From the NCBI GenBank assembly GCA_964456505.1, contig CAYWAH010000002.1, positions 7 to 64,006 on the forward strand: a stretch of DNA of 64,000 nucleotides. The letters are read 5' to 3'. Origin of the DNA: an uncultured Clostridium sp. Lineage in GTDB: Bacteria > Bacillota > Clostridia > TANB77 > CAG-508. The notes below the pieces were generated by a model. The model was given only the letters and a program-made list of their open reading frames with translations. It was not told where the DNA came from and made no database searches. Every line of letters starts with the position of its first letter. The first letter of the stretch is position 1. Positions 36,144-54,853 of the stretch are shown one piece after another. Position numbers and translations under genes: made by a program.

Positions 36144-36731
36144 ATGGAAAAGTACATTAAGAAATTAACTAGAAATTCAATGATAATATCTGTATTGCTA
36201 ATAATTTTAGCATTTTGCATGATATTTAAACCAGTTGCTTCTATCAATGTTTTAATGCTAATTTTTGGTTGGGTATTGGTAATTGATGGAATAGTTCATT
36301 TTATAACATATTTAGACATTGGAGAAGGAGATAGAATATATAGTTTTGAATTAGCTCAAGCTGTTATGGATATTGTATTTGGTTTCTTCATAGTTATGCA
36401 AAGAGACAGAGCAATTGATCTTCTATCATTTATTTTAGGTATTTGGATTCTATTCGATGGAATTGCAAAATTACAAATTGCATTTAACATTAGAGGATTT
36501 GAAGGATCAAAATGGGGTGTTATGGCTTCAATGGCTTTGATTTCAATGTTCTTTGGTATAATGTTATTATTAAATACAATGCCACTTCAAGCATTGGTTA
36601 GAGTTGCAGGATGCATGTTAGCATTAACAGAAATGTTTAGCATTTTTGACGATGTATATATTCTTGGAAATCTAAGATCTATTGATAAAGAAATAAAGAA
36701 GATTGAAAAATCTCAAAAGAAAAATGCATAG
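36144..36731 (+). CDS. DUF308/HdeD-like membrane protein
   Basis: 195 aa with repeated TM pairs carrying the G..L.IDGI.. pattern. Confidence 0.6.
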   Translation: MEKYIKKLTRNSMIISVLLIILAFCMIFKPVASINVLMLIFGWVLVIDGIVHFITYLDIGEGDRIYSFELAQAVMDIVFGFFIVMQRDRAIDLLSFILGIWILFDGIAKLQIAFNIRGFEGSKWGVMASMALISMFFGIMLLLNTMPLQALVRVAGCMLALTEMFSIFDDVYILGNLRSIDKEIKKIEKSQKKNA

Positions 36732-36740
36732 ATAGTATAA

Positions 36741-36770
36741 AAAGGCTTACATTAAGTAAGCCTTTTTTTG
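36741..36770. terminator. Bidirectional terminator
   Basis: aaaggcttac-attaa-gtaagccttt stem followed by T7. Confidence 0.8.
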
Positions 36771-36781
36771 ATATAAGAGTA

Positions 36782-36830
36782 TTAAAATCTTCTGGAGAAA
36801 ACCTAAGAATTTTTAGAAAGAAGATTTTAA
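36782..36830. repeat. Hairpin whose loop carries a 20-mer also found at the edge of the 52.1-kb structured element
   Basis: attaaaatcttct (36781-36793) and agaagattttaat (36819-36831) form a perfect inverted repeat. The loop contains gagaaaacctaagaattttt (36795-36814), identical to 52238-52257. Confidence 0.5.
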
Positions 36831-36837
36831 TGCTTTT

Positions 36838-37416
36838 TTATAATAATATTGGCTGAACTTGTTGCTCTTTCAATGCAAATTTAATTGCGGGGACAATTGA
36901 ATCACTATCAAATACCAATGAACGTGGCTTTGTGATTGGATTATCTTGCCTAAATGGAACAAAATAGAAATGTTTTGTATTTAAAAGATAGCCAATATTT
37001 TTGGCATTTGTACTCAAAGCATCATTTGTAGAAATTGCAACTACAATTGGCTTTTCCATTCTAAGCAAAGATTTGGTAGCCATGGTTACCGAAGTATCAT
37101 TTATGCCATAAGTCAATTTTGCAATTGTGTTACCTGTGGCTGGCGCAATTAAAATTACATCTACCATATTTTTTGGTCCAAGTGGCTCTGCACCAACAAT
37201 ATCATTTATTACTTTATGTCCAGTTAATTTTTCTAATTCTTTTATAAAATCTTTTGCATTTCCAAATCTAGTATTCGTATGATATGCAGTACTAGACATT
37301 ATTGGTATGATTGTTGCGCCTTCTTTTTTCAATTTTTTTACTATATCTAAAATTTTTTCAAAAGTACAAAATGATCCTGTTATTGCAAAACCAATTTTTA
37401 CACCTTCTAATTTCAT
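36838..37416 (-). CDS. dpaB: Dipicolinate synthase subunit B
   Basis: 192 aa that align along the whole length with the B. subtilis SpoVFB sequence as I recall it (GFAITGSFCT, NTRFG, AEPLGPK, IAPATGNT, STNDAL, QPIL). Confidence 0.85.
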   Translation of the reverse strand: MKLEGVKIGFAITGSFCTFEKILDIVKKLKKEGATIIPIMSSTAYHTNTRFGNAKDFIKELEKLTGHKVINDIVGAEPLGPKNMVDVILIAPATGNTIAKLTYGINDTSVTMATKSLLRMEKPIVVAISTNDALSTNAKNIGYLLNTKHFYFVPFRQDNPITKPRSLVFDSDSIVPAIKFALKEQQVQPILL

Positions 37417-41260: not shown

Positions 41261-41521
41261 ATGGAAGTTTTAAAAATATCATCAAAATCAAATCCAAATT
41301 CTATAGCAGGTGCTATAGCTGGAATGGTAAAAGAAACAAGAAGAGCAGAGATGCAAGCGATTGGAGCTGGTGCATTAAATCAAGCAGTGAAAGCGGTGGC
41401 TATTGCAAGAGGCTTTGTAGCACCATCTGGCTTTGATTTAGTATGTATTCCTGCATTTGCAGAGGTTCAAGTTGAAGGTGAAGAAAGAACAGGAATGAGA
41501 ATTGTAGTTGAATCTAGATAA
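41261..41521 (+). CDS. spoVS: Stage V sporulation protein S
   Basis: MEVLKISSKSNPNSIAGAIAG...GAGALNQAVKAVAIARGF, an almost invariant SpoVS sequence. Confidence 0.95.
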   Translation: MEVLKISSKSNPNSIAGAIAGMVKETRRAEMQAIGAGALNQAVKAVAIARGFVAPSGFDLVCIPAFAEVQVEGEERTGMRIVVESR

Positions 41522-50380: not shown

Positions 50381-51019
50381 ATGAATAAAAAAGAAGCGGA
50401 AAACATTACAATTAAATTAATAAAAAATTATCCTGAAGCAAAATGTAGTTTGGACTTTTCCACGCCATTTCAAATGCTGGTAGCAGTTTGCCTTTCAGCA
50501 CAATGCACAGATGAAAGAGTTAATCAAGTTACCAAAACTCTCTTTAAAAGATATTCAACACCAGAAGATTTTGCGAATGCAAATGTTGAAGACATTGAAA
50601 AATTAATTTACTCATGTGGGTTTTACAAAAACAAGGCACGTAATTTAGTAAATGCAGGAAAGAAAGTTTGCGAGGATTATAATGGAATTGTTCCGGACAA
50701 CATGGAAGAATTAATGAAAATACCTGGAGTAGGAAGAAAAAGTGCTAATGTAATTATGCTAGAGGCATTTAACAAACCACAAGGAATTGCAGTTGACACA
50801 CATGTAAAAAGAATTTCAAAAAGAATAGGATTTTCAAATGAAAAAGAACCAGAAAAAATCGAGCAAGACTTATTAAAAGAAATTCCAAAAAAATATTGGA
50901 AAGATGTTAATCATGTATTTATTTATCATGGAAGAAATACATGCAAATCACAAAATCCACAATGCGAGAATTGCGTTATAAAAGATTGCTGTAATTATTA
51001 TACAAATTTAAAAAAATAA
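50381..51019 (+). CDS. nth: Endonuclease III
   Basis: HhH-GPD (LMKIPGVGRKSANVI), DTHV, and the C-terminal 4Fe-4S cysteines C-X6-C-X2-C-X5-C. Confidence 0.9.
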   Translation: MNKKEAENITIKLIKNYPEAKCSLDFSTPFQMLVAVCLSAQCTDERVNQVTKTLFKRYSTPEDFANANVEDIEKLIYSCGFYKNKARNLVNAGKKVCEDYNGIVPDNMEELMKIPGVGRKSANVIMLEAFNKPQGIAVDTHVKRISKRIGFSNEKEPEKIEQDLLKEIPKKYWKDVNHVFIYHGRNTCKSQNPQCENCVIKDCCNYYTNLKK

Positions 51020-51048
51020 TATATTAAACTTGATAAAAGAGAAAAAAA

Positions 51049-51078
51049 CATTGAAGCCAATTGCTTCAATGCTTTTTT
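51049..51078. terminator. Bidirectional terminator
   Basis: cattgaagc-caatt-gcttcaatg stem flanked by an A-run and T6. Confidence 0.75.
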
Positions 51079-51079
51079 A

Positions 51080-51196
51080 CTAGAATATTCCGTTGCCATT
51101 TCCGCAACAGCAGAAAAGCAATAAAAGAATTATTATTAAAGAACAACAGCTATTGTTATTATTGTTGTCTTTATTACAACATTTATCAGGCATCAT
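51080..51196 (-). CDS. Cys/Asn-rich single-TM mini-protein, 38 aa (YjcZ-like tiny sporulation peptide candidate)
   Basis: Hand translation gives MMPDKCCNKDNNNNNSCCSLIIILLLLFCCCGNGNGIF. SD aaggaga lies 7 nt upstream and a terminator follows directly. It is below the 60-aa cutoff of the ORF track. Confidence 0.6.
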   Translation of the reverse strand: MMPDKCCNKDNNNNNSCCSLIIILLLLFCCCGNGNGIF

Positions 51197-51242
51197 AATA
51201 ATATCTCCTTTCAAATATTTAAATATTCAAATTAGTATAGAA

Positions 51243-51377
51243 CTAATTATTGAAGCATGGTGGCTTAGGTCCTGGGTTACAACAACAATCATCATTATTG
51301 TTAGAACCACCACAACAACTGCAAAGAAGCAAAATTATTAAGATGAACCAGATACAGTTACAATTTGAGCCTCTCAT
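51243..51377 (-). CDS. Cys/Asn-rich single-TM mini-protein, 44 aa (YjcZ-like candidate)
   Basis: Hand translation gives MRGSNCNCIWFILIILLLCSCCGGSNNNDDCCCNPGPKPPCFNN. SD aaggagg lies 6 nt upstream. It is below the ORF-track cutoff. Confidence 0.6.
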   Translation of the reverse strand: MRGSNCNCIWFILIILLLCSCCGGSNNNDDCCCNPGPKPPCFNN

Positions 51378-51418
51378 TTGATACCTCCTTATAAAATATT
51401 CATTTCTTTTGTATGCTA

Positions 51419-51445
51419 TATATTATGAAAAATATTTTGATTTGT
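51419..51445 (-). promoter_or_regulatory. sigma-K-like promoter match (AC-16-CATAATATA)
   Basis: The reverse complement of 51419-51427 is CATAATATA, and AC lies at 51445-51444, ~33 nt upstream of the 51377 ATG. Confidence 0.35.
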
Positions 51446-51514
51446 TACTGTTGCCAATTTATTATTGTTGTGGTATTATATTAGGGAATTAACAATATAA
51501 AATGTGAGGATAAA

Positions 51515-52069
51515 ATGAAGGAAGAATTTATAAAATTACTTAAAGAAACAAATAGAGAAGGAATTGATGATTTACTAGAATTTTTGGATCATTCTGATTT
51601 CTATACAGCGCCAGCAAGTACAAGATTTCATGGCTCAAGAGAAAATGGACTTTTAGAACATAGTTTAAAAGTTTATGAAATATTAGATGAAAAAATAAAA
51701 CATGCTCCAATAGAAATAAAAACACCGGAAGAATCAATTAGAATAATTGCTTTACTACATGATATATGTAAAACAAATTATTATTCTGTTGATTATAGAA
51801 ATGCTAAAAATGAACTTGGAGTATGGGAGAAAGTTCCATATTATAAGATAAATGATACCATTCCTTATGGGCATGGAGAAAAATCTGTTATGATGATTAG
51901 TGAATTTATAAAATTGACTAATGAAGAAAAGTATGCAATTCGTTGGCACATGGGTTATACAGAACCAAAAGAATTATATTCAACAATTGGCTTGGCATAT
52001 ATCAAATATCCAATTGCACTTTTGACTCACGAAGCAGATCTCGAAGCAACATACTTTTTCGACACCTAG
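51515..52069 (+). CDS. HD-domain phosphohydrolase
   Basis: RFHGSRENGLLEHSL...ALLHDICK...GHGEKS...RWHMG is a typical HD superfamily pattern. Confidence 0.8.
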   Translation: MKEEFIKLLKETNREGIDDLLEFLDHSDFYTAPASTRFHGSRENGLLEHSLKVYEILDEKIKHAPIEIKTPEESIRIIALLHDICKTNYYSVDYRNAKNELGVWEKVPYYKINDTIPYGHGEKSVMMISEFIKLTNEEKYAIRWHMGYTEPKELYSTIGLAYIKYPIALLTHEADLEATYFFDT

Positions 52070-52108
52070 TAAAATTCAATATAAATAAAAATTACATAAA
52101 TATTATTT

Positions 52109-52258
52109 GAAAAAATTCGTGTTTTTCGAAGCTTGAGGGCTGGTCGGATCTTCCTTAATTACCGATGGCTACGCTAAAAAGTTGTGTCGCCTGGGTTAGG
52201 GTCCCCGACACAACTTTTAGTAGCCAAAGCCCGAAACGAGAAAACCTAAGAATTTTTG
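52109..52258. ncRNA. Unassigned GC-rich structured element (candidate cis-regulatory leader of tyrS, small RNA or MITE-like insertion)
   Basis: 52131-52240 is 57/110 G+C by hand count, in otherwise strongly AT-rich DNA. Nested complementary pairs are 52167-52172/52220-52225, 52175-52189/52206-52219, 52137-52141/52228-52232, 52143-52147/52162-52166, and imperfect outer arms 52109-52128/52237-52258. Confidence 0.55.
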
Positions 52259-52340
52259 AAAAAAATATTTATGTAATTAAATTTAAGAAATAAAAAAATA
52301 GAAAAATAAAAAAATAAAGCAAATAAAAAGGAGAAAAATA

Positions 52341-53549
52341 ATGGCAAATATATTAGACACTTTAAAAGAAAGAGGATACATAGAACAATTAACAGATGAA
52401 GAAGGCTTACGCAAATTACTTGATGACAACAAAATTGCATTCTACATCGGCATAGATCCAACAGCAGATAGTTTGCATGTTGGACACTTTGTTTCACTTA
52501 TGGTAGCATCTTATATGCAAAAAGCAGGACATACTCCAATTATTTTAATGGGTGGTGGTACTGCTAATATTGGTGATCCATCTGGAAAAACCGATATGAG
52601 AAAAATGCTTTCAAGAGAAGAAATTGATCATAATGTTGAATGTATAAAAAAACAAGTAGGTAGATTTTTAAGCTTTGAAGGAGAAAACAAGGCAATTATA
52701 GTTAACAATGCTGATTGGCTTAATGATTTAAACTATATTGATTTTATGAGAAAAATTGGTACACAATTTACAATAAGTAAAATGCTTGCTGCTGATTGTT
52801 ATAAAAATAGATTAGCAAATGGCTTAACATTTTTTGAGATGGGCTATATGCTTATGCAATCTTATGATTTTTGGCACTTATACAACAAATATGGTTGCAA
52901 ACTAGAAATGGGTGGAAATGATCAATGGTCAAATATCATTGGTGGTGTTAACCTTGTTAGAAAGTTTAATAAAAATGATTCTTACGGCTTGACTTTCAAA
53001 CTTTTGACAACAAAAGAAGGAAAGAAAATGGGCAAAACAGAAAAAGGTGCCTTATGGCTTGACCCAGAAAAAACTTCTCCATATGAATTTTACCAATATT
53101 GGAGAAACATAGAAGATGCTTCTGTTAAAAATGTATTAAATATGCTTACATTTTTATCTACAGATGAAATAAATAAATTAACAGATGTTGAAGGTGAAGA
53201 GATAAATAAAGCAAAGAAAGTTGCTGCTTTTGAAATAACAAAAATTGTTCATGGAGAGCAAAATGCAATTGATGCTGAAAAAGCTGCAGATGCTTTGTTT
53301 TCTGGAAAAGGAAATATGGATACAATTCCATCTACAACAATAGAATCAAATTCATCAATACTTGATGCTATTATTAAAACAGGATTTGCTACATCAAAAG
53401 GGCAAGCAAGAACTTTAATTAATCAAGGTGGAATTTCATTAAATGATGAAAAGATATCTGATGTAAATTTAATTATTACAGATGATATGCTAAATAATGA
53501 ATTGATTTTGAAAAAGGGCAAAAAAGGATTTACAAAATTAGTAAAATAA
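52341..53549 (+). CDS. tyrS: Tyrosine--tRNA ligase
   Basis: HIGH (LHVGHF), KMSKS (KKMGKT) and a C-terminal S4 domain. Confidence 0.95.
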   Translation: MANILDTLKERGYIEQLTDEEGLRKLLDDNKIAFYIGIDPTADSLHVGHFVSLMVASYMQKAGHTPIILMGGGTANIGDPSGKTDMRKMLSREEIDHNVECIKKQVGRFLSFEGENKAIIVNNADWLNDLNYIDFMRKIGTQFTISKMLAADCYKNRLANGLTFFEMGYMLMQSYDFWHLYNKYGCKLEMGGNDQWSNIIGGVNLVRKFNKNDSYGLTFKLLTTKEGKKMGKTEKGALWLDPEKTSPYEFYQYWRNIEDASVKNVLNMLTFLSTDEINKLTDVEGEEINKAKKVAAFEITKIVHGEQNAIDAEKAADALFSGKGNMDTIPSTTIESNSSILDAIIKTGFATSKGQARTLINQGGISLNDEKISDVNLIITDDMLNNELILKKGKKGFTKLVK

Positions 53550-53554
53550 TTATA

Positions 53555-53592
53555 AAATCATGTAAAATTTTTAATTAAGTTTTACATGATTT
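53555..53592 (+). terminator. Probable terminator hairpin
   Basis: aaatcatgtaaaa/ttttacatgattt is a 13-bp stem, but the T-tract is weak. Confidence 0.5.
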
Positions 53593-53620
53593 GTGCTATA
53601 AAAATAAAAAGGAGATTCAA

Positions 53621-54853
53621 ATGAAAAAAAGTGAAATTATTTTAATTAGTGTTTTAGCAAGTATTTTAGTGGTCGTTATTATTGCAACACTTGTCATACT
53701 TCCCAAAACAGCTAAGGAAAGTGTAACAAATGAAACTAATGAAGTAGTTGATGTATCAACATTAGATATAAATCAGCCAACTTTGTTTACAGATACTTAT
53801 AAAGAAAATAATTTAAATGTAAGCGTACAAAGAAAAAGCAATGGAAGTGTCACTTCTTGTTCATTTTCAAATGATGACAGACAAAGTGTAAAAAACATAC
53901 AAAATGAAGTATCTAAATTAATAGAAAAATATTCTGATGAAAAGTACTATATTAACTTAAATCTTACAGGAAACTTTTCTAATATATTATCTCTATTAAT
54001 AACAATAAATGATGCACAAGACAATAATAAAAAAGTTGGTTCATATTACTTAAATACTAGACTAGATACAGGAGAGAAATTGAATTTTGGAGATTTATTC
54101 ATTTCAAATGAAGATGCAAAAAAAGTTTTTGAGAATTCTTTGAACAACATTGTTAGTTCGTTAAAAAATAAAAATAAATATTTAAATAGTGAAGAATTAC
54201 AAACTTATGTTAGCCAAAACATAAGTGATTTTGAAAATGGAAAAGAATATCAATTTACAGTTTCACCTAATGATATTACTATATATAATTTAACAGCAGA
54301 TAGAAGCTTGAGTGTTGGAGATGTATTACCAACTTATTTAAAAATAGATTTAACAAATTATGCAGAATATACAAATATATTTAAAAAATTTTCACAAGAT
54401 ATGAAGAGTGATTCAAATGAAATTTTAGCCTTTATGCCATTAGGGAAAAATGGAAATTACAATAAAGTGAATGATCAAACTATTTTGATACAATATTTTC
54501 CTGATGAATTTGACGAGTATTCAAATTTTTGCTCAACTGATATACAAGAATATAATCAAGACTATGAGAAAATGGATAATTCTAATTTGACTCGCGCAAA
54601 AATATTTGCTGCAGATGTTTTAAAAGATGCTCTTAATAATGATTCGTATAAAGTAATTGTACAAAATATTTACATTTCAAAGAGCGATAACAAGATTCAT
54701 ATTTCGCAAGAGGTGTATAAGATGAGTGATGAATTTTTCAATTCTTCTACTTTTACAAAAGAAATTGCTGATGCGAAAAAGGAGTACGGATTTTATGATT
54801 TGAACTTCTCAAATAGCAACGTAGAAACAGAAGCAAAATTCTATGAAAAGTAA
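53621..54853 (+). CDS. Hypothetical membrane-anchored protein (possibly DUF4163/DUF3298-like)
   Basis: ATG 53621 follows aaaaggag. There is one TM. YYLNTRLDTGEKLNFGDLF resembles the DUF3298 hallmark, but this is a low-certainty recollection. Confidence 0.45.
   Translation: MKKSEIILISVLASILVVVIIATLVILPKTAKESVTNETNEVVDVSTLDINQPTLFTDTYKENNLNVSVQRKSNGSVTSCSFSNDDRQSVKNIQNEVSKLIEKYSDEKYYINLNLTGNFSNILSLLITINDAQDNNKKVGSYYLNTRLDTGEKLNFGDLFISNEDAKKVFENSLNNIVSSLKNKNKYLNSEELQTYVSQNISDFENGKEYQFTVSPNDITIYNLTADRSLSVGDVLPTYLKIDLTNYAEYTNIFKKFSQDMKSDSNEILAFMPLGKNGNYNKVNDQTILIQYFPDEFDEYSNFCSTDIQEYNQDYEKMDNSNLTRAKIFAADVLKDALNNDSYKVIVQNIYISKSDNKIHISQEVYKMSDEFFNSSTFTKEIADAKKEYGFYDLNFSNSNVETEAKFYEK

Follow-up and report, generated by a model that had tools for sequence, protein, structure and literature searches.

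A G+C-rich branched element in front of tyrS in a Clostridia species is probably a copy of a new MITE-like or SPRITE-like interspersed repeat

Introduction

In a Clostridia chromosome, a G+C-rich, multi-helix element stands directly in front of tyrS. Is it a regulatory RNA of tyrS, another kind of structured RNA, or inserted DNA? We analyzed a window, that is, the whole 64-kb stretch of DNA (64,000 nucleotides) that carries it. tyrS (402 aa) lies at 52341–53549 on the + strand, and a gene encoding a 184-aa HD-domain protein lies upstream on the + strand at 51515–52069. The gene order is the HD-domain gene, the element, tyrS, a gene for a 410-aa protein, veg, and sipL. The species is found in many gut and rumen metagenome assemblies, and it is spore-forming, judging from its veg, sipL, and spoVS genes. 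An earlier description made from the letters of the window alone (the sequence-only reading) considered a tyrS-specific leader and named a MITE-like insertion as its last alternative. We conclude, with a probability of about 0.75, that the element is a copy of a lineage-specific, non-coding MITE-like or SPRITE-like interspersed repeat, which would have been inserted inside hairpins and is probably transcribed passively.

Composition and fold of the element

The segment 52131–52240 contains 57 G+C in 110 nt, and the remaining intergenic DNA has a G+C content of 12%. When G+C content was calculated for 80-nt stretches, the peak of the whole window fell within the element (0.54 vs a mean of 0.285, sd 0.068). 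The core as a whole has about 52% G+C in a genome of about 28%, and such a G+C-rich branched core is unusual in this genome. Our recount agreed exactly with that of the sequence-only reading, which had also noted the AT-rich surroundings.

The minimum-energy fold is a closed three-way junction with imperfect outer arms. The junction (52137–52232) is closed by P1, in which GGGCT at 52137–52141 pairs with AGCCC at 52228–52232. Inside it, a small hairpin (52143–52166) is formed by GTCGG at 52143–52147 and CCGAT at 52162–52166, with a 14-nt C/U-rich loop at 52148–52161. It is followed by a long hairpin (52167–52225) of about 20 bp, in which 52167–52189 pairs with 52206–52225, including 13 consecutive perfect pairs, around a 16-nt loop at 52190–52205. 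This hairpin has an A-run on its 5' side and TTTTAGT on its 3' side, as in terminators. The helices and the closed multi-branch shape that had been drawn by eye are exact in their coordinates and are reproduced by the minimum-energy fold. On the + strand the fold has an energy of −51.3 kcal/mol (z = −4.06), and on the − strand z = −3.55; none of 200 shuffled sequences was as stable on either strand.

The repeat core, the part common to the genomic copies described below, is about 155 nt long (52107–52261, + strand). It is defined by the alignment with the second copy, which covers 52110–52257, and by the contig breaks in Logan k=31 assemblies; the outermost positions 52107 and 52261 would follow by arithmetic from the k=31 break positions 52136 and 52232. 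On the left, 37 nt separate the core from the stop codon of the HD-domain gene. The core ends as TGAAAAAATTCG...GAATTTTTGAA, and it carries imperfect terminal inverted repeats. The left one, AAAAAATTCGTGTTTTTCG (52110–52128), pairs with the right one, CGAGAAAACCTAAGAATTTTT (52237–52257), by 15 pairs in two blocks in the minimum-energy folds.

The foldback reaches beyond the limits given by the sequence-only reading. Outside the shared core, a left arm at 52090–52104, AATTACATAAATATT, is the perfect reverse complement (15 bp) of a right arm at 52264–52278, AATATTTATGTAATT. When 52085–52285 (201 nt) was folded as DNA, z reached −8.79. The core is non-coding, as the sole ORF overlapping it is an implausible reading frame of 42 aa. 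A small protein encoded by the ORF at 52165–52293 was rejected because it is not conserved and sits inside the helices.

Searches against known RNA families

Rfam 15 matched no family at the gathering score in the whole 64-kb window, and the tRNA search of the same window had no match either; ARAGORN found neither tRNA nor tmRNA. When Rfam was searched at E ≤ 10 over 52000–52400 and 52085–52285, only noise was returned, with no T-box, SRP, 6S, tmRNA, RNase P, riboswitch, or ribozyme. The best sub-threshold scores were 21.8 bits for PISRT1 (threshold 70) and 12.8 bits for ARRPOF (threshold 127). By the Rfam covariance model the element does not belong to the T-box leaders (RF00230). Thus, the failure to match the element by eye to SRP, 6S, tmRNA, or RNase P RNA, to riboswitches or to ribozymes is borne out by Rfam, and so is the absence of a T-box at tyrS, both at the gathering score and at E ≤ 10.

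Several other candidates were also rejected. From the sequence, 6S RNA was dismissed because the open central bubble is missing. Hammerhead and other small ribozymes were dismissed because the conserved core is absent and Rfam gave no match. Ends of IS200/IS605 elements or an omega-RNA would call for paired subterminal hairpins, a conserved target tetranucleotide, or a nearby tnpB, none of which is present, and a retron was rejected because there is no reverse transcriptase gene nearby.

Further copies of the core

The core is not confined to the tyrS locus. In contig L029, from a closely related strain, the 3' end of clpC is followed by about 23 nt, then by the core from 52110 on, and then by tyrS. 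In contig L039, from another sample, the core comes after the HD-domain gene; to its right lies a flank unlike that in the window, with a canonical terminator and then a gene for a 1187-aa protein. The left flank in L029, GAATAAAATACTTT, is the perfect reverse complement of the right flank in L039, AAAGTATTTTATTC, and the two were obtained from different samples; both halves therefore bound one second locus, which we call copy 2. The two contigs are reciprocal joins of copy 1 (the tyrS copy) and copy 2, and they may be either assembly chimeras or real recombinants; copy 2 is known solely from them. In a search with the ClpC fragment, the species' own ClpC was not among the returned sequences.

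Copy 2 aligns with 52110–52257 with three substitutions (ATCTTCCTTAATTA to ATTTACCTTGATTA, at 52150, 52152, and 52157). All three fall within the small hairpin's loop; the stems, at least 100 nt in all, do not differ between the copies. This pattern, in which the differences are restricted to one loop, hints at selection on the structure, as opposed to neutral selfish DNA.

A third occurrence lies elsewhere in the window. The last 20 nt of the right terminal inverted repeat (52238–52257) recur exactly at 36795–36814 (20/20 nt; BLAST E = 3e-5), and none of 100 shuffles gave two or more matches. The recurring 20 nt is preceded by the shared TG and followed by (A)GAA. It sits in the loop of a hairpin at 36782–36830 (+ strand), which has 12-bp arms of its own, TTAAAATCTTCT/AGAAGATTTTAA, and a T-run after it. 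We infer that 36795–36814 is the remnant of an internally deleted copy. Two features of the surroundings may be added: the remnant is in the loop of a long AT-rich hairpin (36771–36841) between the convergent genes 36144–36731 (+) and 36838–37416 (−), and a separate canonical terminator lies at about 36741–36770, just before that hairpin.

The element often breaks assemblies, and the places of the breaks are informative. In Logan k=31 contigs from eight assemblies, six start exactly at 52232 and two end exactly at 52136. Two k87 assemblies start at 52171, and the breaks (ends or starts) of three k141 contigs are at 52216, 52219, and 52266. Copy 2 alone predicts k=31 breaks at 52139 and 52228, not at 52136 and 52232, so by the logic of de Bruijn graphs at least one further copy probably exists; the documented occurrences are two full copies and one remnant. 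The breaks that metagenome assemblies of this species show at the locus are accounted for by a repeat family. Frequent breaks inside the element could also mean that it is a chance palindrome or an assembly artefact, which is hardly credible, as the same sequence is found in independent assemblies of many samples made with different assemblers, the breakpoints are reproducible and not random, and the z-scores of the fold are −4 to −8.8.

A further observation concerns a contig from a sister lineage whose tyrS DNA is about 91% identical. This contig (L016) begins inside the element. Its positions 1–270 are 99–100% identical to 52219–52488 of the window (from the right portion of the repeat across the spacer into the first part of tyrS), and over the retained part of the element the identity is 100%. 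Such high identity suggests recombination, a chimeric contig, or a recent spread.

Flanking inverted repeats

Each of the three occurrences is flanked by perfect inverted repeats of its own, with arms of 15 bp (copy 1), 14 bp (copy 2), and 12 bp (remnant). For comparison, random 154-nt segments of this window have a perfect inverted repeat of at least 12 bp around them at about 1.5e-4 of positions. The three pairs of arms are mutually unrelated in sequence, and the cores are 98–100% identical. Stepwise compensatory evolution therefore cannot explain the arms. A T-run follows the right arm in copy 2 and in the remnant. The hairpin of copy 2 starts 6 nt past the clpC stop codon, where a relative has its terminator. 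No consistent direct repeat, as a target-site duplication would leave, was found in the flanks of copy 1, copy 2, or the remnant. All three known instances are thus nested in a different host palindrome without target duplication, which is unusual.

Empty sites in relatives

The HD-domain protein proved to be the useful anchor for finding the corresponding site in relatives. In four contigs of relatives (L021–L024), whose HD-domain protein is 86–87% identical, tyrS directly follows the HD-domain gene after a spacer of 66 nt, and the element is absent. Removal of 52090–52278 from the window leaves a spacer of 82 nt between the same two genes. The difference, ~190 nt, therefore resembles an insertion specific to this lineage. 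A second empty site was found at clpC: in a relative whose ClpC is 80% identical, a plain terminator follows directly after the gene and the element is absent. Thus, both the HD–tyrS junction and the region downstream of clpC show the presence/absence pattern that is used to recognize MITEs, here between different species and not between strains. The nearest relatives by TyrS (77–78% identical) have other neighbours in front of tyrS and upstream spacers of 64–128 nt; being non-syntenic, these regions are uninformative.

These sites bear on the proposal that the element is a cis-acting leader, or a riboswitch-like regulator, which replaces the usual T-box of tyrS. Its position upstream of tyrS on the same strand, its multi-helix fold, and the lack of a T-box at this tyrS all favor such a role. 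However, the relatives with the 66-nt spacer keep the gene order with neither the element nor a T-box, and tyrS of this clade has no T-box whether the element is present or not. The same core also stands after clpC, ahead of the unrelated gene for the 1187-aa protein. In addition, an AT-rich spacer of about 80 nt separates the element from the tyrS Shine-Dalgarno sequence, and a strain with a 36-nt deletion beside the element exists (see below). The second copy and the empty site largely rule out the tyrS-specific leader, which we regard as very improbable; tyrS is the downstream neighbour of the element and, in all likelihood, not its regulatory partner.

Within the species, six other contigs have the same HD–tyrS intergenic sequence, except for one Shine-Dalgarno base in one strain. 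In that strain, L004, position 2990 (52331 of the window) changes the tyrS Shine-Dalgarno sequence from GGAG to GAAG. The strain with the deletion, L028, lacks 52258–52293 (at L028 position 1453). These 36 nt adjoin the right end of the repeat, and the endpoints of the deletion are in A-runs. The deletion takes out the right outer arm together with a promoter-like −35 hexamer, which belongs to a site at 52256–52283 (TTGAAA-16-TAAATT) that is no better than expected by chance. The −35 hexamer is inside the deletion and is therefore dispensable for the expression of tyrS in L028.

Search for relatives of the repeat

We searched for the repeat in larger collections. Two 20-mers, from the apical part and the left arm, had no match in 185,579 species genomes. 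The apical 20-mer had a single match in JGI metagenomes, which was the tyrS locus itself. Plasmids and phages had no match to the element by BLASTN, and three patterns had no match in viral contigs; 14 viral matches to a gapped junction pattern were rejected as chance, because they lie inside phage genomes of 56–75% G+C. A covariance model built from the two copies was run on the window and 19 loci of relatives, where it recovered the known copies only, the rest being generic hairpins with E > 0.2. The repeat thus appears so far to be confined to this species and its ~91%-identical sister.

A small RNA family or a mobile RNA module?

The copies could instead be genes of a small multi-copy RNA family, either trans-acting sRNAs or RNAs derived from 3'-UTRs, which differ in their seed loop. 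Several features are consistent with this. The + strand carries a hairpin whose C/U-rich loop, AUCUUCCUUAAUUA, resembles an anti-Shine-Dalgarno sequence and contains CUUCCUU; the copies differ only in these 14 nt and keep their stems; the G+C-rich core folds significantly; the long hairpin resembles a terminator and is followed by TTTTAGT; and both full copies are oriented like the flanking genes. The G+C richness of the core, which is atypical of MITEs, also leaves room for a functional RNA. However, no convincing promoter was found, as promoter-like matches numbered 2 where 2.2 were expected from shuffles. Although TTTTAGT follows the long hairpin (52175–52219), a terminator scan of 51900–52450 called none. 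The element is absent from every relative examined and every collection searched, and an internally deleted remnant and copy-specific flanking inverted repeats typify inserted DNA, not genes. Taken together, an sRNA family is an unlikely explanation.

A related reading joins mobility with function. The core may be a mobile RNA module under structural selection, with invariant stems and one diversifying loop, which colonizes the loops of terminator hairpins. In the 3'-UTRs or operon spacers where it lands, such a module could act at the RNA level as a 3'-end cap that binds proteins or blocks nucleases, as a conditional terminator, or as a regulator whose anti-Shine-Dalgarno sequence is encoded in the loop. 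We hold this reading to be speculative and probably not correct.

Comparison with known repeats

The interspersed-repeat reading, which we prefer, can be compared with four groups of known systems. The element resembles MITEs, e.g., Correia elements and QMITE1/2 of Coxiella (PMC10969869), in being shorter than 200 bp, non-coding, and bounded by imperfect terminal inverted repeats; the core of about 155 nt is within the size range of about 50–500 bp that is used for MITEs. It is also like MITEs in its empty sites in relatives and its probable internally deleted derivative, and in that its predicted transcript is a very stable stem-loop (PMC10969869). The occurrences documented so far, two full copies and one remnant, are intergenic as well. 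MITEs are typically AT-rich (PMC10969869), whereas the core of the element is G+C-rich in an AT-rich genome. Few copies are documented, no parent IS is known, neither a transposase nor an autonomous partner was found, and direct target-site duplications are replaced by copy-specific inverted repeats. The MITE-like insertion that the sequence-only reading mentioned last came closest to the evidence. That reading expected a plain MITE to have many copies with target-site duplications; this is half the case, as there is more than one copy, whereas the repeats at the flanks are inverted and not direct.

The pneumococcal BOX, RUP, and SPRITE repeats are small structured repeats that are enriched near the 3' ends of genes (PMC3049150). 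By description, the element is like them in being a small interspersed repeat of a Firmicute, restricted to one species and its nearest relative, in folding tightly when transcribed, and in lying close to gene 3' ends and in the gaps between convergent genes (PMC3049150). SPRITE resembles a terminator, and no target-site duplication can be demonstrated for it, just as none was seen for the element; BOX, RUP, and SPRITE can insert into one another (PMC3049150). The element differs from them in its branched G+C-rich core and in being nested in other hairpins instead of being the terminator hairpin itself.

Insertion into palindromes is known from complete insertion sequences. IS1397 and ISKpn1 of the IS3 family, and IS621, ISPa11, and ISPpu9 of the IS110 family, have REP palindromes as their insertion sites (PMC1525189). 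As with these IS (PMC1525189), inserted DNA would lie between the two halves of a host palindrome at each of the three sites in this species. However, those are full IS with transposase genes that aim at the repeated REP family, whereas the unit here is 155 nt long and non-coding, and the three host palindromes are unrelated in sequence. REPINs and REP-BIME, which are mobilised by RAYT transposases (PMC2817692, PMC3333891), are, like the element, non-coding intergenic palindromic repeats without target-site duplications; they too have G+C-rich stems and often lie just past stop codons. REPs are 20–40 nt long, are present in hundreds of copies, and are found mainly in Proteobacteria (PMC2817692, PMC3333891); the element is a branched structure of 155 nt and differs from them in size and architecture, and a RAYT gene was not seen with it.

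Because there is no target-site duplication and no parent IS is known, the repeat is of the small-interspersed-repeat kind and is not a member of any named family. The repeat family is new. It adds an example from Clostridia to the small structured repeats of pneumococci, Neisseria, and enterobacteria, and in annotation a candidate riboregulator of tyrS is replaced by a repeat family.

Proposed history and expression

The history of the element may be sketched as follows. The HD-domain gene and tyrS were probably about 66 nt apart in the ancestor, and the element would have been inserted between them. Each copy would have entered the center of an AT-rich palindrome or terminator hairpin that was already there, a different one in each case. 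The mobilising enzyme may aim at hairpin loops; alternatively, insertions may be tolerated nowhere else. Survival inside hairpins is plausible because the self-pairing ends of the element just lengthen the host stem. If the targeting of hairpin loops is real, it points to a mobilising enzyme that is specific for single strands or for structure, and hairpin-loop-specific insertion without target duplication would be unusual for a non-coding repeat.

On the + strand, the HD–tyrS and clpC transcripts probably include the element, which would be transcribed passively. We infer this from the tight pair that the HD-domain gene formed with tyrS before the insertion, and from the location of copy 2, which has the stop codon of clpC on one side and the T-run of its hairpin on the other. 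As RNA, the element would form a rod of about 190 nt with a three-way junction. It could act as a roadblock or a partial terminator, attenuate read-through into tyrS, or stabilise and protect a 3' end.

Other observations on the locus

Some features of the neighbourhood deserve brief mention. A second G+C-rich island at 41352–41431, which seems intergenic beside the large ORFs, is coding and contains no RNA element, as it belongs to an 86-aa spoVS-like gene (41261–41521). In front of the HD-domain gene, a spacer of about 500 nt (51019–51515) contains a bidirectional terminator-like hairpin at 51042–51078 and otherwise only short ORFs. After tyrS, an ORF of 420 aa at 53591–54853 (410 aa in public contigs) has no Pfam match, and its position between tyrS and veg is conserved within the species. 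In strain L004 this 410-aa gene (L004 4281–5513) is split into ORFs of 350 aa and 43 aa. A homologue of the HD-domain protein from another lineage (protein P0121, L027 820–1665) is longer, with 281 aa vs 184 aa, because about 100 residues are duplicated in tandem inside the protein.
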